Shown one piece after another: positions 2,602-25,115 of a stretch of 34,072 nt of DNA (its first letter is position 1; each line of letters starts with the position of its first letter). The notes under the pieces were generated by a model, which ran no database searches, was not told the origin of the DNA, and saw only the letters and a list, made by a program, of their open reading frames with translations. The translations under genes and the position numbers were made by a program. Source of the stretch: Chloroflexota bacterium (lineage in GTDB: Bacteria; Chloroflexota; Limnocylindria; Limnocylindrales; CSP1-4); the NCBI GenBank assembly GCA_037147135.1, contig JBAWVU010000002.1, positions 1 to 34,072 on the forward strand, written 5' to 3'.

Positions 2602-2607
2602 GGCCCG

Positions 2608-3381
2608 TCAGACGGGTGGATCCGCCACGCCGAGCGCGTAGCCACCGTCGACGTCGATGACCGCACCGGTCACCCACCGACCGCCTTCGCCGCACAGCCA
2701 CGCCACCGCCCCGGCGACGTCCATCGCGTCGCCAACCAGCGAGAGCGCCTGCTTCGGGAAGACGGAGCCGGTCGAGAAGCGGGCCCGCTCCTCCTCCTCG
2801 GTGGAGCCGCGCAGCTCCGACGGGACGATCCCGGGCCGGATGACGTTGACGCGGACGCCGTAGCGGCCGAGGTCGACGGCGAGCGCCCGGCTCATCGCCT
2901 CGACCGCGCCCTTGCTCGCCACGTAGCCGAAGCGCCCGCGGGGCGGTCGTGCGACGACGGTCGACCCCAGGTTCACGACGGCGCCGCGGCTCTTCCGCAA
3001 CTCGGGGAGCGCCGCGCGCGTGACGAGGAACACGCTCATGACGTTCGCGCGGAGCATCCACTCGAGGTCGCGCTCGTCGAGGGCGTCGATGGGCGCCTGC
3101 ACCTCGCTGCCGGCGTTGTTGACGAGCGCGTCGATCCCGCCGAACGCGGCAACGGCGGCATCGACGATCGCACAGGCATCGGCATCGACCGTGACGTCGG
3201 CCGGGATCGTGACGATGCGTCCGGGACCCGACGCGAGGTCCGCGGAGAGGCGCTCGAGGCGGTCGGCTCTACGAGCCGCCGCGACGACGTGCGCGCCGCC
3301 TCGGACGAGGTGCCGGACCGTGTGGGCTCCGAGCCCGCTCGACGCCCCTGTCACGATGATCCTCAGGCCTTCGACCGTCAC
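2608..3381 (-). CDS. SDR family oxidoreductase
   Basis: GTG start at 3381 with GGAGGA 6 nt upstream. IIVTGASSGLG (TGxxxGxG), LVNNAGSE (NNAG) and YVASKGAVEA (YxxxK) are present. The longer ORF-track start at 3684 was rejected. The stop lies 6 nt from the stop of the convergent ADH gene. Confidence 0.85.
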   Translation of the reverse strand: MTVEGLRIIVTGASSGLGAHTVRHLVRGGAHVVAAARRADRLERLSADLASGPGRIVTIPADVTVDADACAIVDAAVAAFGGIDALVNNAGSEVQAPIDALDERDLEWMLRANVMSVFLVTRAALPELRKSRGAVVNLGSTVVARPPRGRFGYVASKGAVEAMSRALAVDLGRYGVRVNVIRPGIVPSELRGSTEEEERARFSTGSVFPKQALSLVGDAMDVAGAVAWLCGEGGRWVTGAVIDVDGGYALGVADPPV

Positions 3382-3454
3382 CGCTGCTCCTCCATCGGGC
3401 GCCGCGTCTGCGGCGCGATCGGGCGCCGGGTCGCCGGCGCCGCCCGCTTCCCGG

Positions 3455-5608
3455 TCACGCGCGGCCGGCGGCCACCTCGCCTTCGCGGCTGCGGCCGGCG
3501 AGGACGATGAGGTCCTCGTGGAGCTCGAACCAGGCGCTGTGGAAGCTGTCCACGTCCGGACGCGGCGAGGCGACGTAGCGCCGATCCCCGCCCGCCACGA
3601 GGTCGGCGGCCCGCTGGAGCCGGGCACGGTATGTGGCGAGCCGCGGGAGTCGCCCGGTGAGCGGCGCCAGCCAGGCGTCCGCATCCACGTGCAGGGCGGC
3701 GAGCCCGGCGAGGATCTCGGCGTCGTACGCAGGGTCAGCGTGATCGTTGAGGACCTGCATGCCGTCGACCTCGCGCATCTGCCAGGCGGTGACCGTCTCC
3801 TTCATCCGGTGGTCGAGCACGAGGAACGAGTCGAGCGCGGCAAGGGCCTCGTCGACGCCCCATGCCTCCCGGTCGGCGGCGATGAGCTCGTGCGCCATCG
3901 CCTTGCCGTCCGCCGTCAGGCGGAACTGCCCGGCACCCATCTCCGCGAGGCCATCCGCGACGAGCCGGTCGAGCATGCCCGCCATCTCGTCGGGGGTCGA
4001 CAGGGTCGCCGCCGCGAGGCTCGTCGGGAGGACGAAGCCCTTGATGAACACGGCCCGGAGGACCAGGTCCCGCTCCGCCGGGCCGGCCTCGAGCTCCGCC
4101 CGGTCGGGCGCCTCGGCTGCCGCACCCGCCTCGGGCGCCGCCTTGCCGACCGCGATCCCGAGCTCGCGCGCCCACCCGAGCAGCGTCGCCGCCTCCGGGA
4201 CGACCGTCCGCTCGCCGCCGACGGCTCCCGCGAAGATCTCGCCCGTGCTGCCGTCGATCGTCATCGTCTCGCCGACCGCGATCCGCGTCCCGGCGACGAC
4301 GATCGCGTCGGCCCCGACCTCCACGGCGGCGGCACCCACGACCGCGGGGATCCCCCACCCCCGGGCCACGACGGCCGCATGGCTCGCGAGCCCACCCTTC
4401 GACGTGAGGATCCCGGCCGCCTTCGCCATGCCGTGGACATCGTCCGGAGAGGTCTCGGCCCGGACCAGGATGACCGGCCGACCGGCCTCTGCGACGGCGA
4501 CGGCGGCCTCGGGCGTCGTCGCGACCTCGCCGCAGGCGATGCCGGGCGACGCGGGCAGACCGGACGCGAGCGCCGCGACATCGGTCCGCCGCTCGGTCAC
4601 CACGGTCGGGGGGTCGGCGAGGACCTCCGCGACGCGGAACAGGGCCTCCTCGCGGGTGAGCGGGAACCCCGGCGACTCGGCCATGTCGATGGCGATCCGC
4701 AGTGCGGCGTGCGGGCTGCGCTTCCCGACCCGGCACTGGAGCATCCACAGCTTCCCGTGCTCGATGGTGAACTCGATGTCGCAGAGGTCCCGGTGGTGGC
4801 GCTCCAGGCGCGTCGCGTAGTGGCGGAGCTCGCGCCCCACCTCGGGCATCCGCTCATCCAGGACCGAGATCGGCTCGGTCTGGTGGGTGCCGGCGACGAC
4901 GTCCTCGCCCTGGGCGTTGAACATCACGTCGCCGTACAGGTCGGATTCGCCGGTGGCGGGGTTGCGGGTGAAGAGGACGCCGGTCCCGGAGTCGACGCTG
5001 CGGTTGCCGAAGACCATCGCCTGGACCGTCACCGCCGTCCCGAGGTCGTCGGGGATGCCCTCGCGCTCGCGATACGTGCGCGCCCGGTCGCTGTTCCAGG
5101 AGCGGAAGACCGCCTCGACCGCCGCCCGCAGCTGCGCCCAGGGATCCTCGGGCACGTCCTCGACGCCGACGATGTCGCGGAACATCACGACGAATCGGCG
5201 ACGGCAGTTGGCGGCGAACTTCTCGCTGCCGGAGGAGGCGGCGAGCCCCGCCGTCGTGGCATCCGTGAGCCCGAGGTTGAGGATGGTGTCCATCATCCCG
5301 GGCATCGAGACGGGTGCACCCGACCTGACGCTGACGAGGAGCGGGTCGGCCGGGTCGCCGAATCCCCGGCCAACGAGCCGCTCCATCCGGGCCATGTGCC
5401 CGCGCAGCTCGGCGTCGAGACCGTCCGGCCAGCCGTGAGCGAGGAACTCGTTGCACGCAGCCGTCGTGATCGTGAACGCCGGCGGCACGGGCAGGCCGAG
5501 GTCGACCGCCATGACGGTGAGGTTCGCGGCCTTCCCGCCGACGATCCGCTTGACCTCCGCGAGGGTCAGGCCGTCATGGCGGTCGTCGCAGTCGTAGACG
5601 TATCTCAC
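3455..5608 (-). CDS. PPDK-like protein: ATP-grasp nucleotide-binding domain plus phospho-His swivel domain, with the PEP/pyruvate TIM barrel replaced by an unrelated ~205-aa tail
   Basis: GTG at 5608 with GGAG 7 nt upstream. The N-terminus VRYVYD...VGGKAANLTVM matches the PPDK N-terminal signature, followed by VSVRSGAPVSMPGMMDTILNLGL, FTRNPATGE and CDIEFTIEHGKLWMLQCR. The swivel motif is GGLASHAAVVARGWGIPAVVG with the His at aa 410. After aa ~490 there is no PEP-utilizers_C-like sequence. Confidence 0.8.
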   Translation of the reverse strand: MRYVYDCDDRHDGLTLAEVKRIVGGKAANLTVMAVDLGLPVPPAFTITTAACNEFLAHGWPDGLDAELRGHMARMERLVGRGFGDPADPLLVSVRSGAPVSMPGMMDTILNLGLTDATTAGLAASSGSEKFAANCRRRFVVMFRDIVGVEDVPEDPWAQLRAAVEAVFRSWNSDRARTYREREGIPDDLGTAVTVQAMVFGNRSVDSGTGVLFTRNPATGESDLYGDVMFNAQGEDVVAGTHQTEPISVLDERMPEVGRELRHYATRLERHHRDLCDIEFTIEHGKLWMLQCRVGKRSPHAALRIAIDMAESPGFPLTREEALFRVAEVLADPPTVVTERRTDVAALASGLPASPGIACGEVATTPEAAVAVAEAGRPVILVRAETSPDDVHGMAKAAGILTSKGGLASHAAVVARGWGIPAVVGAAAVEVGADAIVVAGTRIAVGETMTIDGSTGEIFAGAVGGERTVVPEAATLLGWARELGIAVGKAAPEAGAAAEAPDRAELEAGPAERDLVLRAVFIKGFVLPTSLAAATLSTPDEMAGMLDRLVADGLAEMGAGQFRLTADGKAMAHELIAADREAWGVDEALAALDSFLVLDHRMKETVTAWQMREVDGMQVLNDHADPAYDAEILAGLAALHVDADAWLAPLTGRLPRLATYRARLQRAADLVAGGDRRYVASPRPDVDSFHSAWFELHEDLIVLAGRSREGEVAAGRA

Positions 5609-5664
5609 GGAGCGACTCCACTGGAACGCCGATCGGGTGGACCCGCGCCCCGGCGCGGCCGCCG

Positions 5665-6723
5665 TCAGGGCGTGATGATGATCTTGATCGCCCCGCTCGC
5701 GGGGTCGTTGAACGTCGCGAGCGCCTGCCCATACTCGGCGAGCGGGAAGCGATGCGTCATGACCTCGCGCACGCGCATCCGGCCCTGCTCGACGAGCGGC
5801 ATGACGCGCCGCATCTCGCCCGCCGAGGCGCGGCACCCGACCAGCTCCAGCTCGTCGAGGACGAGCTTCTGCATGGCGATCTCGCAGCCCTGGGTCGGGA
5901 TCCCCACCGCGGCACAGCGACCGCCGCGCCGGAGCATGCCGAGCGCCCACTGCACGGTGACCGGGACGCCGGCGCACTCGAGGACGACGTCCGCTCCGAG
6001 ACCGCCCGTCATCTGGCGCACCGTGGCGACCGGGTCACCGGCGCTCGAGTCGACCGTCTCGAAGCCCATCGCCCGCGCCTTCGCGAGACGGAGCTCGTTG
6101 CGCTCGATGAGGATCACGCGCGCCGCGCCACGGATCCGGGCCGCGTCGCCGCCGAGCAGGCCGATCGCGCCGGCGCCGGTGATCACGACCGTGTCGCCCG
6201 GGCTCACGTTGCCGCGGTTCGCCACGTGGAGCGCGATCGACGCGGGGTCGACGACGGCACCTTCGTCGAACGTGAGGCCATCCGGCAGCGCGAAGATCGT
6301 CTTGACGCCATGGACGACGAACGTCGCGTCGGCGCCCTGGACGCTGTGGCCGTACTGCTTGTGGAGCCCCGGCCGCCCATAGTTCTCGCAGAGGTTGTAG
6401 CGGCCCTCGACGCACTTCTGGCAGACGCCGCACGCGTCGTGGGAGGTGCCGGCCACCCGATCGCCCACGTTCCAGCCGTGCAGGTCGGCACCCGGCCCGA
6501 GCGCCGCGATCTCGCCGGCCCATTCGTGACCAGGGATGAACGGGAACGCGGGCGGCCAGAAGCCGGGATAGTCGCCGCGCACCAGGTGCGCGTCCGTCCC
6601 GCAGATCGAGACCGCGCGGACCCGCGCGAGGACCTCGTTCGAGCCGGGCACCGGGATCGGGACCTCCCGGATCTCGAAGCGGTTCGGCTCGAGGACGACG
6701 AGCGCCTCCATGGTCTCAGGCAC
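5665..6723 (-). CDS. Zn-dependent alcohol/polyol dehydrogenase (MDR family), paralog B
   Basis: GTG at 6723 with GGAG 8 nt upstream gives VPETMEALVV..., colinear with MSATMQALVV... of the 1546-2601 protein. The same Zn and Rossmann motifs are present. About four-fifths of residues are identical to paralog A by eye. Confidence 0.9.
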   Translation of the reverse strand: MPETMEALVVLEPNRFEIREVPIPVPGSNEVLARVRAVSICGTDAHLVRGDYPGFWPPAFPFIPGHEWAGEIAALGPGADLHGWNVGDRVAGTSHDACGVCQKCVEGRYNLCENYGRPGLHKQYGHSVQGADATFVVHGVKTIFALPDGLTFDEGAVVDPASIALHVANRGNVSPGDTVVITGAGAIGLLGGDAARIRGAARVILIERNELRLAKARAMGFETVDSSAGDPVATVRQMTGGLGADVVLECAGVPVTVQWALGMLRRGGRCAAVGIPTQGCEIAMQKLVLDELELVGCRASAGEMRRVMPLVEQGRMRVREVMTHRFPLAEYGQALATFNDPASGAIKIIITP

Positions 6724-6761
6724 GGCGTGATCTCCTTCGGGACAGCTGCGGGGGGACCGGC

Positions 6762-7652
6762 TCAGTAGACGGCCACGGGATCGACCATCGACCCGGTGGC
6801 GCCGCGGATCTTCACGGGGAGGGCGACGAAGAGGAACTCGTAGATGCGCGAGCGGGCGAGCTCCTCGAGGTCGAGGCTCTCCATGATGTAGACGCCGTTC
6901 TCGATGAGCAGCGCGGTGTGGACCGGCTGCGGGTTGCCGGTGGGGCCCGGGTCGGGGGCCGGCTGGACCTCGTACGTCTCCGTGTCCGTCCCGCTCGCGA
7001 CGACGCCGCGCTCGAGGAGCCAGCGCGCGGTCGAGACGTCCGGGCCGGGAGTCTTGTGCGCGGCCATCCGCTCGGCGTCCGGCCAGAGGCTCATGTAGCC
7101 GGTCCGGATGACGACGACGTCCCACGGCCCGACGGTCACGCCCTCGGCCGCGCAGATCGCCTCCATCTCGGTCGCGTCGATCGGCGATCCCTTCGGCAGG
7201 CAGTCGACGCCGCGGTGGCCCGCCGCGTCGATGAGGATCCCGCGCGTGAAGAACGGCGGCATCGTCGACGCGTCGAGGTGAGCGGGACCGAAGTCGGTGA
7301 GGTGCTCGTCGGCGTTGCCGCCGCCGTACCAGTGCATGTCGTCGGCGAGGGTCATGTGCGCGAGCGCGTCCATGTGGGCGCCGGAGTGCGACGTGGCCAT
7401 GACGTACTCCGCCATGTACCCGAGGCCCGCGTCGTTGATCGGGCCCCACGGCTGCGCGCCGGTGACGCGGATCCCGCGCGGGGTCCGGTAGTTGAGCACC
7501 TGGAACGGGGGGTGACCCGGGAACAGGGGCATACCCGGGTAGCGGACGGCGGCCATCGAGATCATCCGGCCCTGGCGGACGAGCCCGGCCGCGCGGAGCA
7601 CCTGCTCCGGCGGGAGGGCACCGATGGGACCGATGTCGATCGGCGTGGTCAT
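6762..7652 (-). CDS. Cyclase-family protein (kynurenine formamidase / isatin hydrolase-like metal hydrolase)
   Basis: ATG at 7652 with GGAGG 7 nt upstream. 296 aa. SHSGAHMDALAH fits the HxGTHxDxPxH motif of the putative-cyclase family. Confidence 0.7.
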   Translation of the reverse strand: MTTPIDIGPIGALPPEQVLRAAGLVRQGRMISMAAVRYPGMPLFPGHPPFQVLNYRTPRGIRVTGAQPWGPINDAGLGYMAEYVMATSHSGAHMDALAHMTLADDMHWYGGGNADEHLTDFGPAHLDASTMPPFFTRGILIDAAGHRGVDCLPKGSPIDATEMEAICAAEGVTVGPWDVVVIRTGYMSLWPDAERMAAHKTPGPDVSTARWLLERGVVASGTDTETYEVQPAPDPGPTGNPQPVHTALLIENGVYIMESLDLEELARSRIYEFLFVALPVKIRGATGSMVDPVAVY

Positions 7653-7671
7653 CGCTTCGCCTCCTGGTGGC

Positions 7672-9924
7672 TCATGGCGCCTCCCGATCGCGCTCCTGGA
7701 GCGCCCGCCAGACACGCTCCGGCGTCAGCGGCAGGTCGCGGATGACCGCGCCCGACGCGTCCCGGACCGCAGCGGCGACCGCAGGCGCGACGCAGAGGAG
7801 GGCCCCTTCGCTCATGCCCTTGGACCCGTAGGGGCCGGGCCCGTCCTCGTTCTCGACGATCTCGCTCACGAGCTCGAGAGGCAGGTCCATGCTCGTCGGG
7901 ATCCGGTAGTCGATGGCGCCGAGGTTCCGGATCCGGCCGGTCGCGTCGAAGATGTAGTGCTCCATGAGCGTGTGGCCGAGGCCCATGATCGCGGCACCCT
8001 CATCCTGCATCCGCACCTGGAGCGGGTTGAGCGCCTTCCCGACGTCGGAGACCGTCACGTGGCGCACGAGCGTGACGTCGCCGGTCGCCTCGTCGACCTC
8101 GGCCTCGATGGCAGTGCAGTTGAACTCGAAGAACGCCGGGCTTCCGCCGAGGGGATGGCCGGGCTCGTCCTCCTTGCGCATCTCGCCGTTCCCGATGAGC
8201 TCGCCGCCGAGCTTGCCAAGGCCCGGCTTGAGCACCTCGAGGACGGTGAGCTCGCGGTCCGGCAACCGGACGACGCCGCGATCGACGACGATCGCGTCCG
8301 CCTCGGCGCCGTGGAGCCGGGCCGCCATCGCCCGGAGCTGCGCCTGGATGTCACGGCACGCGCGGAGGACGGCATTGCCCATGAGGACGGTGGACCGACT
8401 GGCCGAGGTCTGCTGGTCGTACGGGACGCTGAAGGTGTCGCCCATGACCACGGTGATCCAGTCGAGCGGCGCCCCCAGCTCCTCGGCCGCGATCTGCGCG
8501 TAGACGGTGCGCGCGCCCTGACCCATGTCGGACGTCCCCGCGTACACGAGGACGCTGCCGTCGCCGAGGAGACGCACCGTGGAGTAGGAGAGTCCGGTCG
8601 TGGGGCCCGACTTGATGCCGAGGGCGATCCCCCGGCCGCGCCCGGGCGGGAGCGGGCTCCCCCACCCGATGAGCTCGGCAGCCCTGCGGATGGTCTGCTC
8701 CCATTCCCCGTCGGCCGGGGTGTCGCCCGGGATGAACGCCTCGCCGTGGCGGGCGAGGTTGCGCAGGCGGATCTCGAGACGGTCGATCCCGAGAGCGCGG
8801 GCGCCCTCGTCGAGATTCGACTCGACGGCCCAGTTCGCCTGCGGGTTCCCGAATCCGCGGAACGCGGTCGATGGCGTCGTGTGGGAGAGGATGGTGCGGG
8901 CGACGATCCGCGCCGCGGGCACGCGGTAGGGCCCGCAGGCGGGATAGCTGCCCTTGCTCACGGCCCGGTCGGCGATGTCCACGTATGCGCCGGCGAGGTA
9001 GTCCGCCGCGATGTCCTGGAAGGCGATCCGCCCATCCGCCTGGAACCCCGTCCGGACGCGCACCTCGGCCGAGGTGCGGCGCACCGCCTGGAACGTCTCC
9101 TCGAGCGAGAGGATGAGGCGTACCGGCCGGCCGGTCCGGAGGGCCATGAAGGTGACGAGCGGCTCGAGCTTGGGGTTCTGCTTTCCGCCGAAGCCGCCGC
9201 CCGGATCGGGCGCGAACACCCGGACCTTCGCGAGCGGGAGGCCGAAGACCGTGGCAAGTGTCCTCTGGAGGAGGTACGGGTGCTGGATCGAGCTCCAGCA
9301 GGCGATCCCGTCGCCATCGGGCGCGGCCATGAAGCCGTGGGGCTCGATCGCGAAGTGGGTGACCATCGGGAACGTGTACGTGTTCTCGACGACGAGATCG
9401 GCCCGGGCCACGTCCACGTCGGCCCAGCCGTACCGGTGCTCGCGGACGATGTTCGTCCCGGCGTTGGGGTCGCCCGGGCGGAGGGCCGGGTCCTGGACGA
9501 GCGGCGCGGCGGGGTCGAGCGCGGCGGCGACCGTGAAGACGGCCGGCAGCTCCTCGTACTCGACCTTCACGAGGCGCGCGGCCTCCTCTGCCGCGTCCTT
9601 CGTGTCGGCGGCGACCGCGGCCACGGGCTCGCCGTGGTATTTCGTCTCGCCGACCGCGAGGACGGGGCGATCCCGGAACTGCGGCCCGAACCGCGGGACG
9701 GGCTGCGGGAGGTCCGCGGCGGTCATGACAAGGCGGACGCCGGGCACCTGCTCGGCCGCGCGCGTGTCGATCGAGATGATCCGGGCGCGGGCACAGTCGA
9801 GCGTGACGAGCTTCGCCTCGAGCACGTTGGGCAGGCGGATATCGGCCACGTACTGCTGGCTGCCGGTGACCCGGCCGACGCCGCCGACGCGGTTGGGGGA
9901 GCCGCCGATCCGATCCGTACTCAT
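7672..9924 (-). CDS. Molybdopterin-binding large subunit of a xanthine dehydrogenase-family hydroxylase
   Basis: 750 aa. GGGFGGK, TAFRGFGNPQ and the C-terminal GPYGSKGMSEGAL (catalytic Glu region) are present. The ATG at 9924 overlaps the upstream stop codon as ATGA. Confidence 0.9.
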   Translation of the reverse strand: MSTDRIGGSPNRVGGVGRVTGSQQYVADIRLPNVLEAKLVTLDCARARIISIDTRAAEQVPGVRLVMTAADLPQPVPRFGPQFRDRPVLAVGETKYHGEPVAAVAADTKDAAEEAARLVKVEYEELPAVFTVAAALDPAAPLVQDPALRPGDPNAGTNIVREHRYGWADVDVARADLVVENTYTFPMVTHFAIEPHGFMAAPDGDGIACWSSIQHPYLLQRTLATVFGLPLAKVRVFAPDPGGGFGGKQNPKLEPLVTFMALRTGRPVRLILSLEETFQAVRRTSAEVRVRTGFQADGRIAFQDIAADYLAGAYVDIADRAVSKGSYPACGPYRVPAARIVARTILSHTTPSTAFRGFGNPQANWAVESNLDEGARALGIDRLEIRLRNLARHGEAFIPGDTPADGEWEQTIRRAAELIGWGSPLPPGRGRGIALGIKSGPTTGLSYSTVRLLGDGSVLVYAGTSDMGQGARTVYAQIAAEELGAPLDWITVVMGDTFSVPYDQQTSASRSTVLMGNAVLRACRDIQAQLRAMAARLHGAEADAIVVDRGVVRLPDRELTVLEVLKPGLGKLGGELIGNGEMRKEDEPGHPLGGSPAFFEFNCTAIEAEVDEATGDVTLVRHVTVSDVGKALNPLQVRMQDEGAAIMGLGHTLMEHYIFDATGRIRNLGAIDYRIPTSMDLPLELVSEIVENEDGPGPYGSKGMSEGALLCVAPAVAAAVRDASGAVIRDLPLTPERVWRALQERDREAP

Positions 9925-10406
9925 CGCCCCGCCCTCTCGGCGGTCGCGAGGACGGCGTCGGTGATCTGCTCGTAGCAGGCACAGCGGCAGAGGTTGCCGG
10001 CAAGGCCCTCGGCGATCTCGGCGACGGTCGGGTGCGGGTTGAGGGCGAGCAGCGCCTGCGCGGACATCACCTGGCCGGGGATGCAGAAGCCGCACTGGAC
10101 GGCGCCCTTGTCGAGGAAGGCCTCCTGCAGCGGGCTCAGGCGACCGTCGGCCGCGAGCCCCTCGATCGTCGCCACGTCGGCGCCGTCGGCTTCGACGGCG
10201 AGCATGAGGCAGGAGTCGACGGAGCGGCCGTCCACGATGACGGTGCATGCGCCGCACTCCCCCACGAGACAGCATTCCTTGGTGCCGGTGAGCTCGAGGT
10301 CTTCGCGCAGGACCTCGAGGAGCGTGCGGTTCGGGGCGACCTCGAACGCGCGCGGGCGCCCGTTCACGGTGACGCGGACAGGGACCGTCTCGATCATCCC
10401 GCTCAT
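9921..10406 (-). CDS. (2Fe-2S)-binding small subunit of the molybdenum hydroxylase
   Basis: CLVGECGACTV, CGFCIPG and CRCACY cysteine clusters are typical of CoxS/XdhC-type small subunits. The ATG at 10406 overlaps the upstream stop as ATGA. An alternative ATG at 10397 lies 9 nt after GGAAGG. Confidence 0.9.
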   Translation of the reverse strand: MSGMIETVPVRVTVNGRPRAFEVAPNRTLLEVLREDLELTGTKECCLVGECGACTVIVDGRSVDSCLMLAVEADGADVATIEGLAADGRLSPLQEAFLDKGAVQCGFCIPGQVMSAQALLALNPHPTVAEIAEGLAGNLCRCACYEQITDAVLATAERAGR

Positions 10407-11263
10407 CCTTCCGCCAGCCGGTCGATCGCCGTCCGCAGCGCGCGTGCGCCGAGGACGCGCAGCATCGCGAGGCGGTACTCGGGGCTCGCCCGCATCGACC
10501 GGGGCGACGGACTCGCGTCGGCGAACATCCGCTCGAAGATCGCCGCCCGGGCCCCGTCCGACGCGGTCGGGTCCGCGAGCACGCCGCTCTCGTCGACGGC
10601 GAGGACGGGCCGCGGCCCCACGCTGCCGTAGGCGATCCGGGTCACGCCGGCCTCGTCGACGGAGCACGCCAGCGTGACGGACGCGAGGTCGTGGCCGCGA
10701 CGGCGCGTCCGGCGGGTATGGACCGAGCCCGCCCGCCGGGTGGGCAGGGGCAGCTCGACCGCCGTGACGATCTCGTCCTGCGCGAGGGTCGTGACCCCGG
10801 AGCGCACGAAGAAGTCCGTCATCGAGATGCGCCGGGTGCCGCCCGGCCCGGCCGCGACGACCTCCGCCCCATACACGAGGAGCGACGGCGCGGTGTCCGC
10901 GGCGGGCGACGCGTTGCAGACGTTCCCCGCCAGCGTGGCCCGGTTCCGGATCTGCACCGAGCCGACGACCGCGGCCGCCTCCGCGAGCGCGGGGAAGTAG
11001 CGTCGCACCCGCTCGTCGGCTGCGATGTCCGTCATGACGGTCGTGGCCCCGACGGCAAGGCGCCCGCGCTCCTCGCGGATCGCCGGGCCGAGCTCTGCGA
11101 TCCGCTTCACGTCGATGACGACGGCCGGACGGACCGTCCCATCGCGCAACCGGATGACCAGGTCCGTTCCCCCGGCGAGGAGCCGGGCATCGAGTCCGTG
11201 CGTCGCGAGCAGTGCCACCGCCTCGGCCAGCGTCGCCGGCCGCGCGTAGGCGAAGGTGTGCAT
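10403..11263 (-). CDS. FAD-binding medium subunit of the molybdenum hydroxylase
   Basis: 286 aa. MHTFAYARPATLAEA...LLAGGTDLVIRL is typical of the CoxM/XdhB FAD-binding domain. GGGGGAAG lies upstream of the ATG at 11263. Confidence 0.85.
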   Translation of the reverse strand: MHTFAYARPATLAEAVALLATHGLDARLLAGGTDLVIRLRDGTVRPAVVIDVKRIAELGPAIREERGRLAVGATTVMTDIAADERVRRYFPALAEAAAVVGSVQIRNRATLAGNVCNASPAADTAPSLLVYGAEVVAAGPGGTRRISMTDFFVRSGVTTLAQDEIVTAVELPLPTRRAGSVHTRRTRRRGHDLASVTLACSVDEAGVTRIAYGSVGPRPVLAVDESGVLADPTASDGARAAIFERMFADASPSPRSMRASPEYRLAMLRVLGARALRTAIDRLAEG

Positions 11264-11284
11264 CGTTCGTTCTTCCCCCGAGCC

Positions 11285-12172
11285 TCAGACGACCTTGTCC
11301 ACCTCGTCCAGCAGCACCTGCGGGGTGGCCGCCCGGATGAAGAAGAACGGCCGCTCGCAGAACCGGTTCACGAAGTCCGCCCGCCTGGCTCGCAGCACGT
11401 CGTTGTCGACCATCGGCATCACGAAGCCCGGCGCCAGCAGCTCGTTCGTCAGCAGGTAGTTCTGCAGCGAGTGGAGGAACTGGAACTGGCGTTCGAACGG
11501 GATCAGCTCGTTCGCGGCCGGGTCGAAGTTGCCGTCGATCGCCGGGACGATGACGAGGTCGATGTTCGGCGTCCCCTCGTAGAACCCCCAGGACGGCATC
11601 GCGCCCCAGAACTTCTCGACGCCCTTGTTGGGGGCGGCTTTGTCGGAGCGCTCGGTGCCCTCGGTGCGCTTGCGCAGGAAGGTATCCACGGAGCCCATGA
11701 CGGCGCGCCCGTCATCGCTGATGACCGTAGTCTCGGACGCGACCTGGAGCCCGCCGCGGCGGCCGGCCTCGATGAGGCCCATGGACTTGCCGTGGTTCGA
11801 CTCGCCCCCGAGGAACAGCATCGTCTTGCCGCGGTAGTTCACGGCAGCGCTGTGGGACGGGTGCAGGCCGGCTTCCTCCATCCGGAGGGAGAGCATCGCC
11901 ACGACGACCTTCTGGATCGGGCCGGCCGGCCAGGGGCCGGTGAACGTCATGACACGACCGTCGTAGGAGATCGCCTTGTCGCCGCCCTGGCGCCACACGA
12001 TGTCCGGCTGGTCCAGCGTGACCTCCGGCGAGATCCGGACGTCGGCGAGCCTGTAGTTGAGGAAGTCCAAGTCCTCGAGCACATGCTCGCGGGGCTCGGT
12101 GCCGTAGACATCCACGCGCAGGCGCGCCATCCCCGCCGACATCTCCTCGGACAGTCGTAGCTGGTCGTTCAT
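11285..12172 (-). CDS. Hypothetical P-loop protein with an HPr kinase/phosphorylase C-terminal-like core
   Basis: 295 aa. LHPSHSAAVNYRGKTMLFLGGESNHGKSMGLIEAGRRGGLQVASETTVISDDG resembles the HprK-type block (Walker A G-x4-GKS, then L..L...G..LVaDD). The rest of the protein shows no motif I recognise. Confidence 0.5.
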   Translation of the reverse strand: MNDQLRLSEEMSAGMARLRVDVYGTEPREHVLEDLDFLNYRLADVRISPEVTLDQPDIVWRQGGDKAISYDGRVMTFTGPWPAGPIQKVVVAMLSLRMEEAGLHPSHSAAVNYRGKTMLFLGGESNHGKSMGLIEAGRRGGLQVASETTVISDDGRAVMGSVDTFLRKRTEGTERSDKAAPNKGVEKFWGAMPSWGFYEGTPNIDLVIVPAIDGNFDPAANELIPFERQFQFLHSLQNYLLTNELLAPGFVMPMVDNDVLRARRADFVNRFCERPFFFIRAATPQVLLDEVDKVV

Positions 12173-12217
12173 CGGTCCCTCTCGTTGCGATGCGGTTCGT
12201 GGTGATGCGGCGCCGGG

Positions 12218-12895
12218 TCAGGCGATCGGTTGAGCGTCGGCCGCCGTCCAGAGGATGTCGAGCATCTCCGCGGCGGTCGCGAAGTGGCGGCGCAGGGCGT
12301 CGGCCGCCAGCTCCGGGTCACGGCGCCGGAGCGCCTCGAGCACCGGGACGTGGAGGTCGGCGATCCTCAGCCGGTCCGCTCCCGGCACGGCAAGGCTGAT
12401 GTAGGTCCTCGAGAACGGCTCGAGGTGCCGCCACACCCGTTCGAGGGTGGCGTTGCCGGTCACCTCGACGATCCGGCTGTGGAAGCGCGCGTCGGCCGTG
12501 GCCTCCGTGTGGGCGTCTCCGACGCGGGCGGCCTGCCTCATGTCGCGGACGCAGCGGCCGAGCTCGTCGAGGTCGGCCTCGGTCAGCTGCGAGATCGCGA
12601 GCCGGGCACCCAGAGCCTCGAGCTCCGATCGGACGCCGAACGCCTCGAGGAGCTCGGCCGCCGACGGGCGGCGGACGCGGGCTCCCCGGAACGCGGTCGT
12701 CTCCACGACGCCGATGGCCTCGAGGTCACGGAGCGCCTCCCGCACCGGCGCCTGGCTCGTGCCGAACTCCCGGGCCACCCGGGTCTCGACGATCCTGGCG
12801 CCGGGCGGATAGCGGCCGTCAAGGATCGCCTGGAGGAGGCGATCCTTGACCTGGTCGCTCAGGACACTGCGCGAGATCGCTGTGCCGTCCGACAT
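12218..12895 (-). CDS. GntR family transcriptional regulator, FadR subfamily (FCD effector domain), copy 1
   Basis: 225 aa. The N-terminal winged helix-turn-helix is RIVETRVAREFGTSQAPVREALRDLEAIGVVE. The helical C-terminal domain contains DARFHSRIVEVTGNATL, an FCD-type His motif. Confidence 0.9.
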   Translation of the reverse strand: MSDGTAISRSVLSDQVKDRLLQAILDGRYPPGARIVETRVAREFGTSQAPVREALRDLEAIGVVETTAFRGARVRRPSAAELLEAFGVRSELEALGARLAISQLTEADLDELGRCVRDMRQAARVGDAHTEATADARFHSRIVEVTGNATLERVWRHLEPFSRTYISLAVPGADRLRIADLHVPVLEALRRRDPELAADALRRHFATAAEMLDILWTAADAQPIA

Positions 12896-12906
12896 CGTGG
12901 TGTGGC

Positions 12907-14679
12907 TCAGGACCCGATCCCGATGGTCGGGCGGACCGTCTCGGTGCTGAGGATCTCGACCACGCCGGCGTTGCCGTCGACGCGGATGCGCTGGCCGGTG
13001 TGAATCACGTAGGTGCCGATCGACGTGCCGACCACCGCGGGGATCCCGTACTCGCGGGCGAGGACGGCCGGGTGAGCGACGACGTCGCCGGCGTTCGTCA
13101 CGACCGCGGCGATCTTGCCGTAGAGGACCTGCCAGGCCGGGTTCGTCATCTCGCACACCAGGATCTCGCCCTGGCGCACGAGGTCGAACTCGTCCGTGGA
13201 GGTGACGACGCGCGCCACGCCCTCGACGACGCCGGGCGATCCGGCGATACCGGCGAGCTTCCCGTCCTTCAGCTCCCGCGGGCGGTCGAACTTGTCCGGG
13301 AAGCCCCAGAGGTTGAGGTAGGGGAACGCGAGCTGCGTCGCGGTGGCCGTGCCCACCCAGTCCTTGGGCCGGATGCCGTCCGCCGCGGCGCGCTTGGCGC
13401 GCGCGGCCGCGACGATCGCCCGCCCTGTTGTGGCGTCCGGTGCACCGATGAACTCGCGCAGGGCGTTGTAGCGGAAGTAGATGACGTCGTCCGGCTGGTC
13501 CAGAACGCCCATCGCGACGAGCTTCTCGCCGAGGGCGATGAGGACGAGGCGGACGTGGGCGTTGGCGCCCTGGTCGATGTAGAAGTGATGGTCCGGGGTG
13601 AGCGGCGCCATCTTGAGGTTGATCTCGTTGGCGGCCCGCATCTCCTCGAGCGCCTCGCCGGAGAGCCCCTCGAGGATCTCCACCGCGGCGGCATCGATGT
13701 CGGCCTTGAGGGCGGCGACCTTCGTCGGGTAGTCGTAGTCCGACGCGTACTGGTCGCGAACGAGCTGGACGACCGGGACCATGTCCTCGCGGAAGCTCGG
13801 GTAGATGAACTCGTGGCTCCAGACCGCGTGCCAGCCGAACTCCTTCTGGTACGGGACCACTCGCTCGTCGATGAACCGGCGGCCGCGTTCGGTGGCCTGG
13901 AGGGCCGGGACGATGTCCGTCGCGGCCGCGTGGTCGAAGGCCGCGGAGAGGACCGGGTCCGCCTTGACCTCTTCCTTCATCTCCCAGAGGGCCTCGATCT
14001 TGTCCCAGTTGCGGTCGCTGGCCGAGTTCTGCAGCCGGCCGAGGAGGACCTGGTTCACCTCCCCATGGGTCTTCTTCATGACCGCCTGGAGGTTGAGCGT
14101 CGCGCTGAGCTGCGCGAAGTTCAGCATCCAGTGGATCTTCCAGTGGCGGTCGTGCATGTCGATGGCGTCCTCGAGGAGGACCGCCACCTCGGCGAGGCTC
14201 AGCTGGTCCTTCTGGTCCAGCATCGACTCGATGTAGTCGAAGTTGCGCTGCATCTCCGGCACGAACCGGGTGCGCCACCAGTAGGTGAAGTTGGTCCCGT
14301 AGACGGGCAGCACCGCGCCGAGGTACGCACCGATCTTCGCGGCGTAGTCTGCGTCCTCGGGGACGATCGCCTGCGTCTCGTAGTTGTATTCCTGTGTCGC
14401 GACGTGGAGGCCGGCCTCGGCCGGGATCGCGGTCGTGTACAGGTAGCCGTTGATCTTCTTGTAGATCCAGTCCGTCGCGAAGGGCGTGCCGAAGCGGCGG
14501 AACATGTGGTCGCACGAGAGCCACCAGCCGCCGATGTCCTCGTACATCGGGCTGAGCGGCTTGGGGCAGTGCAGGTCGTCGAAGACCCAGAAGAGGAGCT
14601 TCTCGTTCTCCGAGGCCCACTCGATCGGGAACGATCCGTCCCCGAGGAATGCGCCGAGGACTTCTTCCTTGAGCGGCAC
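12907..14679 (-). CDS. Atypical PEP-utilising enzyme: ~470-aa N-terminal domain of unknown function plus C-terminal phospho-His swivel domain, with no ATP-grasp
   Basis: GTG at 14679 with GGAGG 6 nt upstream. 590 aa. The C-terminus is GIAGSPGVVEGVARVV...ILVCEMTNPAW...VVTNAGDVVAHPAVLAREYGIPAVVG, a PEP-utilizers mobile domain with the His at aa 536. The N-terminus (FWVFDDLHCPKPLSPM...) lacks any GGKxxNL/ATP-grasp signature. Confidence 0.75.
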   Translation of the reverse strand: MPLKEEVLGAFLGDGSFPIEWASENEKLLFWVFDDLHCPKPLSPMYEDIGGWWLSCDHMFRRFGTPFATDWIYKKINGYLYTTAIPAEAGLHVATQEYNYETQAIVPEDADYAAKIGAYLGAVLPVYGTNFTYWWRTRFVPEMQRNFDYIESMLDQKDQLSLAEVAVLLEDAIDMHDRHWKIHWMLNFAQLSATLNLQAVMKKTHGEVNQVLLGRLQNSASDRNWDKIEALWEMKEEVKADPVLSAAFDHAAATDIVPALQATERGRRFIDERVVPYQKEFGWHAVWSHEFIYPSFREDMVPVVQLVRDQYASDYDYPTKVAALKADIDAAAVEILEGLSGEALEEMRAANEINLKMAPLTPDHHFYIDQGANAHVRLVLIALGEKLVAMGVLDQPDDVIYFRYNALREFIGAPDATTGRAIVAAARAKRAAADGIRPKDWVGTATATQLAFPYLNLWGFPDKFDRPRELKDGKLAGIAGSPGVVEGVARVVTSTDEFDLVRQGEILVCEMTNPAWQVLYGKIAAVVTNAGDVVAHPAVLAREYGIPAVVGTSIGTYVIHTGQRIRVDGNAGVVEILSTETVRPTIGIGS

Positions 14680-14737
14680 GTGGATCCTCCTGTGCGGTGT
14701 GCGACCCGGGGCGGACTCGCCGGCCCGGGACTGGTCG

Positions 14738-14956
14738 TCAGCCCGCGGCTGCTTGGTGGCGGGTGATCCGCCTGAAGCGCCGCATGTTCTCGGTGGGCGC
14801 GATCTCCGTCGGGAGACCCTCCATGCTCGACGCCCCGAAGAAGCCGGCCACACCCGTCGTGTGGTAGCTGACGTACCGGGCGTCCTCCGGCTCCGCGATC
14901 GGGCCGCCGTCGGCAACCGTCCCGCGCAGGCGCTCCAGCGCCTCGCCTCGGTTCAT
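14738..14956 (-). pseudogene. Remnant of a PEP-hydrolase-like TIM-barrel gene (partner of UPF0261/Tm-1) with a large in-frame internal deletion
   Basis: 72 codons. MNRGEALERLRGTVADG looks like the family N-terminus. It is fused directly to GPIAEPEDARYVSYHTTGVAGFFGASSMEGLPTE...FRRI, which looks like the family C-terminus (HGGPIA.PEDA..V...T.GV.GFyGASSMERLP). Family members are about 275-285 aa from memory. The ATG at 14956 overlaps the UPF0261 stop as ATGA. Confidence 0.55.
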
Positions 14957-16203
14957 GTGGGTCCCCCCGGGCTCACCCCCTTCGCCGCGGCCCACCGGCG
15001 GTACAGGTCGTCGAGCCGCTCCGCCATCGCACGCGCGAACGCTGGATCGTTGATGTCGGTGGCCATCTCGACCACTTCGACCTCGGGCCGGAGGCCGGCC
15101 TTCAGCTCACGGATGAGGGCCGCGTCCGCGACCGGGTCGTGGAACGGGGCACCGGGGACGTCGATCATCGAGACGCCGCCGAGCGGGATGAACACGGCCA
15201 GGGGCCCCGTCGCCGCGTTGAGCTTGCGGGCGATGATCCGCCCCAGCTCCGCGCACTCCGCCTCGGTCGTCCGAACGAGCGTGATCGTCGCGTTGTGGAC
15301 GTAGAGATCGCGGTCCCTGAACTGCGGCGGGACGGTCTCGAGGGGCCCGAAGTCCACCATGTCGAGCGCGCCGAGCGAGACGACCTGCGGGATCCCGAGT
15401 GAGCCGGCCATCTCGAGCCGGTCCGGCCCGGCCGAGTGGATCCCGCCCACGAGCGCGTCCGCGAGCTCGGTCGTCGTGACGTCCAGCGACCCGGTGATGA
15501 AGCCCGCCGCCATGAGCGCTTCCATCGCTCTCCCGCCGGAGCCGGTGGCATGGAAGACGAGGACCTCGTATCCCCTCTCCTCGAGGATGTCCCGGGCCGC
15601 CGTGACGCAGGGGGTCGTGACCCCGAACATCGTGGCCCCGATGAGGGGCTTCGGCGAGAGCTGCGACACGAACGACGCAGCGGCCTTCGCCATCCCGGCG
15701 ATCCCCGCCGCAGCGTTCGTGAGGATCCTCTCCGAGAGGCCGTTGATCCCGGCGATGTCGACGACCGAGTACATCATCGCGATGTCCGTGGTGCCGACGT
15801 ACGGCCGCGTTTCACCGGAGGCCATCGTCGAGACGAGGAGCTTCGGCACGCCCACGGGCAGCGCCTGCATCGCCGCCGAGACGATCGACGAGCCGCCGGA
15901 TCCGCCGAGGCCGAGGATCCCGTCGAGCCGGCCCTCGTCGTGGAGGCGCCTGACGATCACTGTCGCGCCGCGTGCCATCGCCAGGACCGCCGGCCCGCGG
16001 TCGCCGGCCGCCGCGAGGGCCGCCCTGCTTTCCCCCGCGGCCGCGGCGACTTCGTCGGCGCCTATGTCGCCGGGCGAGGGATCGCTGAGCACCCCAGCGT
16101 CGACGAGGATCACGTCGCAGCCGAGCCCACGAACGCGGTCGCGCAGGAACTCGTACTCTGCACCCTTCGTGTCGAGGGTACCGAGCAGCACCACGCTGGC
16201 CAC
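14953..16203 (-). CDS. UPF0261 family (Tm-1 N-terminal-like, putative nucleotide-binding) protein
   Basis: GTG at 16203 with GAGGGG 6 nt upstream. 416 aa. The N-terminus VASVVLLGTLDTKGAEYEFLRDRV...VILVD is characteristic of UPF0261. Confidence 0.75.
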   Translation of the reverse strand: MASVVLLGTLDTKGAEYEFLRDRVRGLGCDVILVDAGVLSDPSPGDIGADEVAAAAGESRAALAAAGDRGPAVLAMARGATVIVRRLHDEGRLDGILGLGGSGGSSIVSAAMQALPVGVPKLLVSTMASGETRPYVGTTDIAMMYSVVDIAGINGLSERILTNAAAGIAGMAKAAASFVSQLSPKPLIGATMFGVTTPCVTAARDILEERGYEVLVFHATGSGGRAMEALMAAGFITGSLDVTTTELADALVGGIHSAGPDRLEMAGSLGIPQVVSLGALDMVDFGPLETVPPQFRDRDLYVHNATITLVRTTEAECAELGRIIARKLNAATGPLAVFIPLGGVSMIDVPGAPFHDPVADAALIRELKAGLRPEVEVVEMATDINDPAFARAMAERLDDLYRRWAAAKGVSPGGPT

Positions 16204-16356
16204 GCGCGACCCCTCAGCCAGCCGTGGTCGGGACGACCGGGAACCCGCCCAGCCGGACCGGGAGGGAGTCCGTCACGATCTTCGTCATTGGCCACCTCTC
16301 GTCGACGAGTGCCCGGCGGTAGCGGAAGGGGCACGGAACTGGCGGAACTGGGACGT

Positions 16357-16377
16357 TCGATAATCGATTGTCGATAA
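16357..16377. promoter_or_regulatory. Operator-like motif copy 1 (TCGATAATCGATTGTCGATAA)
   Basis: AT-rich element in a GC-rich intergenic region. It shares TCGATAATCGATTGT exactly with copy 3. It contains the 8-bp palindrome AATCGATT and reads as three tandem heptamers, TCGATAA TCGATTG TCGATAA. Confidence 0.6.
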
Positions 16378-16405
16378 GACTAGGAACCCGTGCCCGTCGA
16401 GTCAA
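16377..16405 (-). promoter_or_regulatory. Candidate sigma-A-type promoter for the 12-gene minus-strand array
   Basis: On the minus strand: TTGACT (16405-16400), an exact 17-nt spacer, then TAGTCT (16382-16377; TANNNT). The -10 hexamer abuts operator copy 1, the same geometry as at copy 3. Confidence 0.45.
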
Positions 16406-16545
16406 GTGCCGTTGCGTGGCTCGTGACCCCGCCGGCCACCGGCGCCGCGACCCGTGCAGCCCCTCCTCGACCAGTCCGGCCGGAGCTCGCGGCCGGGACG
16501 ACGATCGCGCCCGCGCAGAACGACGGATACCGCTGCAAGTACCGC

Positions 16546-16574
16546 TTGCCTCCAGCGCATCGATAATCGATGAT
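16546..16574 (+). promoter_or_regulatory. Candidate promoter for the transaldolase-mmsA unit
   Basis: TTGCCT (16546-16551), a 17-nt spacer, then GATGAT (16569-16574). The -10 lies inside operator copy 2. The hexamers are weaker than at copies 1 and 3. Confidence 0.3.
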
Positions 16575-16575
16575 A
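16560..16575. promoter_or_regulatory. Operator-like motif copy 2 (TCGATAATCGATGATA)
   Basis: The 16 nt are identical to copy 4. It lies about 140 nt upstream of the transaldolase start. Confidence 0.6.
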
Positions 16576-16716
16576 CGAGGTGCACGGCAGGTGCGCCGTG
16601 CGGTCGACGGCCCGAGCCGTCACGGTCGATCCGGACAAGTGCCAGGAGCGCCGCGACCATCCGGGCACCGACGAGGTCCCCTATCCCATCTCCGGCGAAG
16701 CCGAGAGGATCACCAG

Positions 16717-17811: not shown

Positions 17812-17857
17812 GACGGGGCGCGGTACGCTCCCCCCACACGCAAGGAGGCACACGCAC

Positions 17858-19384: not shown

Positions 19385-19410
19385 GCCGGGCTCGTTCACC
19401 CGGGCATCGA

Positions 19411-19459: not shown

Positions 19460-19486
19460 CAGGGGCGCACCGACGGGAGAAGAAGG

Positions 19487-25111: not shown

Positions 25112-25115
25112 GGAC

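Follow-up and report, generated by a model that had tools for sequence, protein, structure and literature searches.

Two-component dikinases such as HpeHI, AcvAB, CreHI and PpsAB pair a subunit of about 70 kDa, in which an RPH-like substrate domain is joined to a His-bearing swivel domain, with an ATP-grasp-only subunit of about 40 kDa (PMC12167813, PMC9618137); enzymes of the HpeH type are reported to lack the regulatory Thr site (PMC12167813), and in the known phospho-aromatic pathways carboxylation comes after phosphorylation (PMC9618137). A dependence of a molybdenum (Mo) enzyme on such a pair is also on record, as the xanthine dehydrogenase (XDH)-family hydroxylase HpdA of the 3-hydroxypyridine (3hpd) cluster of Ensifer adhaerens HP1 needs an adjacent dikinase pair (bioRxiv 10.1101/2020.01.08.898148). 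Here we examine a stretch of 34,072 nucleotides from a Chloroflexota bacterium (Limnocylindria; Limnocylindrales; CSP1-4; GenBank assembly GCA_037147135.1, contig JBAWVU010000002.1, positions 1 to 34,072 of the forward strand), referred to in its full length as the window. Three of its minus-strand genes are our main subjects: they encode a truncated pyruvate phosphate dikinase (PPDK) of 717 amino acids (aa) at 3455-5608, a P-loop protein of 295 aa at 11285-12172, and a 590-aa phosphoenolpyruvate (PEP) utiliser at 12907-14679. An earlier reading based on the letters and open reading frames (ORFs) alone, hereafter the sequence-only reading, had combined their products into a three-part phosphotransfer machine of ATP loader, P-loop modulator and substrate phosphorylase. 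The three genes belong to one conserved catabolic operon and are functionally linked, and both an XDH-family Mo enzyme and a GntR regulator are part of the conserved core of this module.

Conservation of the locus

The window has a GC content of about 70%, and its real genes could be picked out by frame-specific GC at third codon positions (GC3). This analysis returns all three genes in the coordinates and frames that the sequence-only reading had given them, and the peptide which it quoted from the P-loop protein is likewise correct; the start codons are GTG for the 590-aa protein, with AGGAGGA upstream, GTG for the 717-aa protein and ATG for the P-loop protein. As had been stated, the three lie in the same co-directional array, which comprises 12 minus-strand genes between 16203 and 2608, closely spaced or overlapping, and the genes of the XDH-family Mo enzyme sit between them.

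Conservation was followed in a related set of 80 species-level Limnocylindrales (Chloroflexota) loci, all from this single order, and in a distant set of 46 metagenome loci of at least 6 kb around distant homologues of the P-loop protein, to which nine further contig look-ups were added. Across the 80 related loci the gene order is kept, running from the 590-aa protein through the GntR regulator, the P-loop protein, the FAD-binding, [2Fe-2S] and molybdopterin-binding subunits of the Mo enzyme, and an optional cyclase and alcohol dehydrogenase (ADH), to the 717-aa protein. In this order the genes are present in 76, 78, 80, 80, 79, 78, 59, 59 and 62 loci, respectively, with absences that mostly fall at contig ends. 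Few products of the operon are as conserved as the P-loop protein, whose median identity over these loci is 82.7%, as compared to 68% for the 717-aa protein. In the distant set, dikinase genes lie beside the P-loop homologue in 39 of 46 loci, as they do in eight of the nine contig look-ups, and an ATP-grasp-only gene is placed directly upstream of the P-loop gene in 23, with a 4-nt overlap in one case (L092). Seven distant loci are without dikinase genes; five of these have the P-loop gene close to the end of the contig, and the other two (L129 and L130) have several kb on either side of it. The conserved linkage of the three families that the sequence-only reading had set as its own test is found in both sets, far more often than chance would give; its three-part composition holds for the linked genes themselves and leaves out the Mo enzyme and the GntR regulator.

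The remainder of the module is retained to varying degrees. A pterin-cofactor oxidoreductase is encoded in 33 of the 46 distant loci, of the XDH type in 17, of the tungsten-dependent AFOR type in 17 and of the DMSO-reductase type in 9, and a GntR gene in 22, the cyclase being recurrent there as well. UPF0261 genes are found in 35 of the 80 related and 21 of the 46 distant loci, and short-chain dehydrogenase/reductase (SDR) genes in 32 and 31, respectively. The module of dikinase and Mo/W oxidoreductase is widely distributed among archaea and uncultured Chloroflexota of soil and fresh water, and it also occurs in a cultured organism, on the megaplasmid of Thermomicrobium roseum (NC_011961.1, 47-73 kb; L089), where it comprises an ABC transporter, UPF0261, PEP hydrolase, GntR, cyclase, an ATP-grasp-only gene, an HpeH-like gene and an XDH-type enzyme. 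A 205-aa gene following the ATP-grasp gene in T. roseum was considered as a hidden P-loop homologue and rejected (hhalign probability 0.1%); its only match, to DUF4202, is sub-threshold, and therefore no functional replacement can be deduced from it.

The two PEP-utilising proteins

The 590-aa protein has a single Pfam match, to a PEP-utilizers swivel domain at its C-terminus (residues 502-572, E 2e-19). In NCBIfam and PDB searches, residues from about 25 to 480 relate to the substrate-binding part of RPH, RedH, PigC and PRK08296 proteins: residues 377-577 align with residues 681-866 of RPH 5fbs (E 9e-23), the score against the PRK08296 equivalog is 163 bits for a cut-off of 578, and orthologues carry precomputed Rph_4th and PEP-utilizers domains. 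The swivel motif reads TNAGDVVAH, where His536 is the predicted catalytic residue and the second Gly of the consensus is replaced by Asp in this subclade. Across all orthologues examined the motif is T-x-x-G-[GD]-x-x-x-H and the equivalent of His536 is invariant, while the residue two positions before it (His-2), a Val here, is unconserved in the family. In anatomy, the protein corresponds to that subunit of a split RPH/PEP-synthase-type dikinase which binds the substrate and bears the catalytic His, similar to HpeH, PpsA and CreH, and it would be expected to catalyse the corresponding reaction.

The complementary parts are found in the 717-aa protein. It combines PPDK_N (E 4e-47) with a PEP-utilizers swivel at residues 378-456 (E 9e-22), aligns with residues 12-528 of Clostridium symbiosum PPDK in a PDB search (E 4e-121) and has intact PPDK ATP-site motifs; it scores 509 bits against the NCBIfam model for truncated PPDK, NF004531 (cut-off 456), and 536 bits against TIGR01828, under the cut-off of 843, and Pfam returned no match to a PEP/pyruvate-binding TIM barrel. 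His410 of its swivel motif, TSKGGLASH, is invariant in all orthologues examined, and the PPDK swivel is therefore unlikely to be vestigial. The regulatory Thr site at His-2 is occupied by Ala or Val throughout the family; the best PDB match, 1GGO, which we take to be the T453A mutant of PPDK, likewise reads GGMASH there. The two PEP-utilisers have an invariant swivel His each (orthologue alignment) and are domain-complementary (Pfam, NCBIfam and PDB). The complementarity had been proposed in the sequence-only reading, and its description of 12907-14679 as a putative substrate domain plus swivel is equally borne out. For 3455-5608, its assignment of an ATP-grasp and a swivel with no substrate domain fits the PPDK_N and swivel matches and the missing barrel, but overlooked a C-terminal tail.

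This tail consists of about 235 further residues (window 3455-4170) at the place where PPDK has its barrel. As a single sequence it has no direct Pfam or PDB match; a homologue profile identifies its first half as a winged helix of the MarR/DtxR kind (PDB 4o5v, E 1.6e-4; 3cdh, E 6e-4), and Pfam MarR_2 is matched by 4 of 23 tail homologues. It ends in a conserved motif, SFH..WFELHEDL, which starts with SYH in most homologues. In several long-read metagenome-assembled genomes (MAGs) the tail is called as a separate ORF of about 200-270 aa, which could reflect split genes or frameshift errors.

We propose that in Limnocylindrales the truncated PPDK would supply ATP binding in place of the ATP-grasp-only subunit of about 320 aa. 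The main argument for such a partnership is that its distribution is complementary to that of ATP-grasp-only genes: none of the latter was found in the window or within the 10-kb flanks of the 80 related loci, and all other module-bearing lineages have a PEP-synthase-type ATP-grasp-only gene and, except in L175, no 717-type protein. Furthermore, the tail motif recurs on the second swivel protein of a Rhodococcus cluster (described below), indicating that the tail module has moved between partners, and this ties a truncated PPDK to a second swivel protein. The same features can be read differently. With its invariant swivel His and its winged helix, the 717-aa protein might be an ATP-charged His-phosphoprotein that binds DNA, in the manner of a sensor or regulator of the phosphotransferase system (PTS), or else a separate dikinase, the 590-aa subunit then using an ATP-grasp protein encoded elsewhere; in line with this, it is less conserved than the rest of the operon, its gene stands at the far operon end with optional genes between it and the core and is absent from L033 and L052, and truncated PPDKs are found in other catabolic clusters. 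We consider this account somewhat unlikely in view of the complementary distribution, of a gene that is always co-oriented in the same array, and of the tail motif in common with the Rhodococcus swivel protein.

The P-loop protein

In the P-loop protein, the block highlighted by the sequence-only reading spans residues 118-155 and holds the Walker A motif GESNHGKS at 123-130. The protein has no Pfam or NCBIfam match. Its family yields 2,936 matches among clusters at 90% identity and about 180, mostly fragments, among 1.84 billion representatives at 50% identity, and among the matches listed the name supplied for these relatives is 'hypothetical protein' in every case. Close relatives come from Chloroflexota MAGs labelled Limnocylindrales, and those at 38-48% identity include Nitrososphaerales and Bathyarchaeia archaea. 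Five long family members with a Pfam match are read-throughs into neighbouring FCD or FAD_binding_5 genes, and five others have extensions with no Pfam match. A tblastn search of 72,556 PLSDB plasmids, a set in which the presence of the 3hpd plasmid was left unchecked, gave no match. One N-terminally shorter homologue (261 aa; L094, contig Ga0063012_10000542) is encoded between SDR/Zn-ADH and aldehyde dehydrogenase (ALDH) genes, in the only long context with neither a dikinase nor a Mo/W enzyme within 10 kb.

An AlphaFold2 (AF2) model built from a diverse alignment of the family reached a predicted local distance difference test score (pLDDT) of 92 and a predicted template modelling (TM) score (pTM) of 0.89; a first model, from a shallow alignment of sequences more than 80% identical, had a pLDDT of 59.8, with values below 50 in the P-loop region, and was discarded. 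In a Foldseek search of the PDB the best 35 matches to the model are all ATP-dependent PEP carboxykinases (PEPCK; E 5e-8 to 3e-6, probability 1.00, TM 0.41-0.48), as compared to HPr kinase/phosphorylase (HprK/P) at E 4e-4 and TM 0.24-0.28. At the sequence level, the family profile finds Thermus PEPCK in the PDB at E 5e-4, hhalign aligns the family with Escherichia coli PckA at E 7e-5, and the PEPCK family PF01293 is precomputed for four homologues; the gathering threshold of PF01293 is not reached, with no match for the window protein itself and a best value of E 0.038 among nine members. In the alignment, the Mn ligands and Walker residues of PckA (K213, H232, K254/T255 and D269) are matched by K88, H107, K129/S130 and E147 of the P-loop protein. 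All 49 family sequences compared have H107, K129 and E147, the last a Glu where PckA has D269, and K88 is Lys in 44 and Arg in 5. From the model and these alignments we conclude that the protein is probably a PEPCK-superfamily phosphotransferase, rather than a PEPCK proper, a DUF299 protein or a typical HprK, and we refer to it as mini-PEPCK. The Walker A block, which had been taken for its only recognisable feature, is present, and an ATP-PEPCK fold is recognisable in addition. Weak PDB matches to a viral 'replication-associated protein' of the Rep/SF3 type (E 9e-4 and 0.026) were absent from the structural search and were taken as generic Walker A similarity. A peptide-maturation kinase, of the lasso-peptide or HPr-rel-A (HprK-related) kind, was also considered and set aside, there being no NCBIfam match and no PqqD, protease or precursor-peptide genes nearby, where oxidoreductase and dikinase genes are found instead.

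The earlier analogy with DUF299 and HprK modulators would make the protein a regulatory kinase/(pyro)phosphorylase that switches the swivel domain(s) or the GntR regulator. The PEPCK-like superfamily does include HprK/P, which both consumes and produces pyrophosphate, and here the partner is of the PPDK type; the P-loop gene often adjoins an ATP-grasp or GntR gene, and its very high conservation would fit a product with several protein partners. In both fold and sequence, however, the protein is nearer to ATP-PEPCK than to HprK/P, with Foldseek values of E 5e-8 and 4e-4, respectively, and it retains the PEPCK metal triad. Neither Hpr_kinase nor DUF299 is matched in Pfam, nor any HprK-related model in NCBIfam; at His-2, where DUF299 proteins would find their target Thr, the 717-aa family has Ala or Val and the 590-aa family varies, and HpeH-type enzymes are reported without this regulation site. 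The analogy is not sustained by these data: we do not think that mini-PEPCK is a swivel regulator in the style of DUF299 or HprK, and hold regulation of this kind to be unlikely.

A more literal reading of the fold would see in mini-PEPCK a true carboxykinase analogue, which would carboxylate or decarboxylate an aryl or enol phosphate made by the dikinase with ADP/ATP phosphate exchange, and would take over the part that UbiD-type or biotin-dependent carboxylases play in the phenol and acetovanillone pathways. The PEPCK-like fold with its metal and P-loop residues kept speaks for such an enzyme, as do the known phospho-aromatic pathways that carboxylate after phosphorylating and the fact that a UbiD-type or biotin carboxylase was seen in none of the loci. 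Set against this are the equivalent of PEPCK Tyr207, a CO2/substrate contact in the E. coli enzyme, which is not conserved in the family, the N-terminal domain bearing PEPCK Arg65, which is largely missing, and the conserved neighbours, which are oxidoreductases and suggest oxidation as the next step, so that we judge a carboxykinase improbable. Finally, a P-loop protein that serves the pterin-cofactor oxidoreductase, for instance in cofactor insertion or activation, instead of taking part in phosphotransfer would suit a gene that directly precedes the one for the XDH FAD subunit in the window and many loci and lies upstream of a DMSO-reductase-type gene in others, as well as the Mo/W enzyme in 33 of the 46 distant loci, but it is very improbable because the enzyme family varies (XDH, AFOR, DMSO reductase) and their maturation systems differ, the ATP-grasp gene is the commoner immediate neighbour (23 of 46), T. 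roseum has an XDH-type enzyme and no P-loop protein, and the XDH/CODH maturation factors XdhC and CoxD/E/F have other folds.

The gene array and its surroundings

The minus-strand array begins with a 416-aa UPF0261 (Tm-1-like ATP-binding) protein (14953-16203; Pfam UPF0261, E 2e-63; UPF0261_C, E 1e-92), of a family recently shown to include the aromatic kinase MarK (PMC12624787), and continues with a 72-aa remnant of a PEP-hydrolase-like TIM-barrel gene (14738-14956) and the 590-aa gene. Between the latter and the mini-PEPCK gene lies the GntR/FCD transcriptional regulator (225 aa, 12218-12895; Pfam GntR, E 9e-15; FCD, E 2e-26). The Mo enzyme follows with its FAD-binding subunit (286 aa, 10403-11263; FAD_binding_5, E 3e-48; CO_deh_flav_C), its [2Fe-2S] subunit (161 aa, 9921-10406; Fer2, Fer2_2) and its molybdopterin-binding subunit (about 750 aa, 7672-9924; Ald_Xan_dh_C, MoCoBD_1, MoCoBD_2). 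By this Pfam domain set it is a three-subunit Mo hydroxylase of the XDH/CODH family; as to its substrate class, every NCBIfam equivalog is far under its cut-off (for example, 441 as compared to 995 bits). The optional part of the module consists of a cyclase-family (PF04199) metal-dependent hydrolase-like protein (6762-7715; Pfam) and a Zn-dependent ADH (5665-6723; ADH_N, ADH_zinc_N), and beyond the truncated PPDK the array ends with an SDR (2608-3381; adh_short, E 3e-47) whose start is uncertain (3381 or 3354). With its annotated start (7715), the cyclase gene shares 44 nt with the end of the Mo-subunit gene, and its true start may be further downstream. Above shuffled expectation, a promoter and terminator scan of 2000-17000 gave no hits.

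A lower GC content had been noticed for the mini-PEPCK and 590-aa genes. The dip is real but smaller than the sequence-only estimate of about 60% against about 70%, the two genes having 67.1% and 67.3%, respectively, and their neighbours 71-75%. GC3 is equal in these genes and their neighbours (0.95-0.96), and the dip therefore sits in codon positions 1 and 2, that is, in amino-acid composition; horizontal transfer was rejected as its cause on the same grounds.

The PEP-hydrolase-like gene usually comes right after UPF0261. In the window, the 14738-14956 remnant matches only positions 217-267 of the 267 of the PEP_hydrolase profile. In a blastn comparison with L008, which holds the full 279-aa gene, about 610 nt are gone, corresponding to an in-frame internal deletion of about 205 codons, and some 16 N-terminal and 56 C-terminal residues appear fused at a Gly-Gly microhomology. 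The remnant is either a true deletion in the genome or an assembly artefact.

Divergent from the operon, the plus strand at 16570-22791 encodes a transaldolase/FSA-family protein, an ALDH, a luciferase-like monooxygenase, a cupin and a transketolase with detected pyrimidine-binding and C-terminal domains, the last possibly a split gene; transaldolase or transketolase genes are seen again in the distant loci L002, L087, L090, L096 and L139. The region 24233-30047 holds a branched-chain-amino-acid-type ABC transporter, its confirmed components being a BPD_transp_2 permease and a Peripla_BP_6 binding protein, and after it comes another GntR/FCD regulator (29253-30047, minus strand); T. roseum and L087 also have a transporter of this kind beside the module. 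At the other end, two Zn-dependent ADH genes with an identical Pfam domain set (1546-2601, plus strand, and 5665-6723, minus strand) flank the truncated PPDK and SDR genes, and a metallo-beta-lactamase-fold gene lies at 315-1490; Lactamase_B genes near the module also occur in L001 and L090. Among anaerobe-like relatives (L085/L086, L091, L092, L095 and many of L099-L178), an AFOR and/or a DMSO-reductase-family enzyme is found instead of the XDH type, and genes for GAPDH-like, PGK and LarA-like proteins and for 2-oxoacid dehydrogenase E1/E2 recur beside the module.

Discussion

As an explanation of the whole locus we favour, although only tentatively, a catabolic operon that would phosphorylate its substrate first and then oxidise it, by means of a split dikinase, a Mo enzyme and mini-PEPCK. 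In the first step, the 590-aa protein would phosphorylate the hydroxyl or enol of a small substrate, probably a hydroxy-aromatic or heteroaromatic compound, through phospho-His536. The 717-aa protein, in the role suggested by its complementary distribution, would load its own His410 from ATP, probably with release of AMP and pyrophosphate as in PPDK, and the phosphoryl group would then pass to the 590-aa subunit, coming straight from the ATP-grasp site or relayed from His410 to His536; the winged-helix tail may serve to dock the partner or to couple phosphorylation state to transcription. On the model of 3hpd and Cre, the phosphorylated intermediate would next be oxidised by the XDH-family Mo enzyme together with the ADH and SDR, and relatives would use a tungsten AFOR or a DMSO-reductase-type enzyme for this step instead. 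In the fourth and most conjectural step, mini-PEPCK may act as a metal- and nucleotide-dependent phosphotransferase on a phosphorylated small molecule, most likely returning the aryl or enol phosphate to ADP as PEPCK does with PEP; aryl phosphates have a high group-transfer potential, and such a return would therefore be thermodynamically reasonable. By analogy, this logic would resemble that of known hydroxy-aromatic routes in which oxidation comes after phosphorylation (Cre, Hpe/Acv, 3-hydroxypyridine). The phenylphosphate pathway phosphorylates and then carboxylates.

Several observations weigh against this interpretation. The T. roseum module has no P-loop homologue, which means that neither the dikinase nor the Mo enzyme strictly requires the P-loop protein. 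With respect to the PEPCK assignment, the TM-scores of the model are moderate, the equivalent of Tyr207 is not conserved, most of the N-terminal substrate-binding domain is absent (295 aa, as compared to about 540 aa for PEPCK), and the HprK/P branch of the same fold performs pyrophosphate chemistry on a protein. A mere ATP-grasp donor requires neither an invariant swivel His nor a winged helix, so that the 717-aa protein could instead work on its own as an enzyme, or as a regulator; its gene is missing for several kb downstream in at least two of the related loci (L033 and L052), and an ATP-grasp-only gene may lie elsewhere in Limnocylindrales genomes, the search having covered the window and the 10-kb flanks. 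Finally, the neighbouring transaldolase, split transketolase, ALDH, GAPDH-like and PGK genes leave room for a non-aromatic substrate. We regard as doubtful the bolder proposal that mini-PEPCK represents a new enzyme class, be it an aryl/enol-phosphate:ADP phosphotransferase or a carboxykinase acting on such phosphates, combined with a swivel-to-swivel His relay from the PPDK-derived partner; we know of no precedent for a relay of this type outside the PTS.

The phosphorylation of a phenolic or enolic oxygen prior to oxidation or carboxylation is an emerging general strategy in the catabolism of aromatic and lignin-derived compounds, and the locus gives leads on why a Mo hydroxylase needs a dikinase and on the fate of the invested phosphate. 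A constant and highly conserved protein with a predicted PEPCK fold is a candidate for the missing phosphate-handling step, and the Limnocylindrales may be a lineage in which a truncated PPDK with its own catalytic His and a DNA-binding-type domain has replaced the ATP-binding subunit. In practical terms, several thousand 'hypothetical proteins' would gain an annotation, and biocatalysis possibly a cheaper, ATP-recovering phosphorylation module.

Comparison with known systems

The closest described systems are HpeHI (Rhodococcus), AcvAB (Sphingobium), CreHI (Corynebacterium glutamicum) and PpsAB(C) (Thauera/Aromatoleum), which have in common with the window an RPH-type domain with a C-terminal His swivel, the T/S-x-x-G-G-x-x-x-H motif, ATP binding on a separate protein, a catabolic operon setting and the absence of the regulatory Thr. 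Distant relatives of the window locus carry the canonical PEP-synthase-type ATP-grasp subunit of about 320 aa, like the HpeHI class, in which it is a separate protein of about 35-40 kDa, whereas the window has in its place a PPDK N-terminus with a swivel His and a winged-helix tail. The constant third gene also differs, being mini-PEPCK here and the CBS-domain protein PpsC in phenylphosphate synthase, and so does the downstream enzyme, a Mo/W oxidoreductase in this module and a carboxylase or P450 in the HpeHI, AcvAB, CreHI and PpsAB systems. The 3hpd cluster (HpdA1-4 with orf9/orf10) comes nearest in gene content, with adjoining genes for an XDH-family Mo hydroxylase, a 'pyruvate phosphate dikinase', a 'PEP-utilizing mobile subunit' and a GntR regulator; it differs in that HpdA has a separate SRPBCC fourth subunit and in its maleamate-pathway genes, neither of which is among the window ORFs scanned with Pfam. 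RPH and PigC/RedH follow the same dikinase logic of ATP-grasp, substrate domain and swivel, but RPH does so in a single chain, whereas the parts are split in the window and the ATP-grasp is of the PPDK rather than the RPH/PEP-synthase type. PPDK itself (EC 2.7.9.1) has the ATP-grasp and central swivel His in common with the 717-aa protein, which has neither its PEP/pyruvate barrel nor its regulatory Thr.

A further parallel is offered by plasmid pROB02 of Rhodococcus opacus B4 (122-137 kb; L097/L098). It encodes a 570-aa truncated PPDK that has Val in place of the regulatory Thr and matches the 717-aa protein, over residues 4-463 of the latter, at 49% identity. Next to it is encoded a 793-aa protein that combines a swivel at the N-terminus and a different middle domain with a TrmB-type winged helix and the C-terminal motif of the 717-aa tail (E 3e-11). 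The cluster also contains ALDH, Zn-ADH and FCD-regulator genes, and it has P450 (with ferredoxin and reductase), Tyr-phosphatase-family and two APH/EcKL kinase genes in place of the Mo enzyme and mini-PEPCK; in all, it resembles a further catabolic system of the 'phospho-tag' kind, in which two swivel proteins take part.

With ATP-PEPCK (PckA, PF01293), the P-loop protein has in common the predicted fold and the block G-x-W-x-x-G-E-x-Q-K ... H-S-A ... G-x-x-x-x-G-K-[ST] ... E. PckA, however, is a full two-domain enzyme of about 530 aa with an oxaloacetate/CO2 site (R65, Y207, R333), as opposed to 295 aa here, and its context is gluconeogenic where that of the P-loop gene is catabolic. The likeness to HprK/P extends to the fold superfamily, the size of the catalytic domain and a His that precedes the Walker Lys by about 22 residues, but Hpr_kinase_C/N are unmatched in the P-loop protein and no HPr gene was found among the window ORFs scanned. 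DUF299 proteins (PF03618, PDRP/PSRP) are likewise P-loop proteins encoded with a swivel-domain enzyme, but match neither in sequence nor in fold, and their target Thr at His-2 is absent or unconserved.

The sequence-only reading knew of no described system with this composition, which does not hold against the PpsAB, CreHI, HpeHI and AcvAB class nor, for the pairing with a Mo hydroxylase, against 3hpd. The split dikinase and its Mo-hydroxylase association are already described, and on present evidence the locus is not a categorically new system; what sets it apart from these precedents is the mini-PEPCK family, a new element for which a phosphate-handling function would be predicted, and, as judged from sequence comparison, a partner derived from PPDK, in which an invariant His of its own is retained and a winged-helix tail is present, both likewise new elements with putative functions in phosphoryl supply and docking or regulation.

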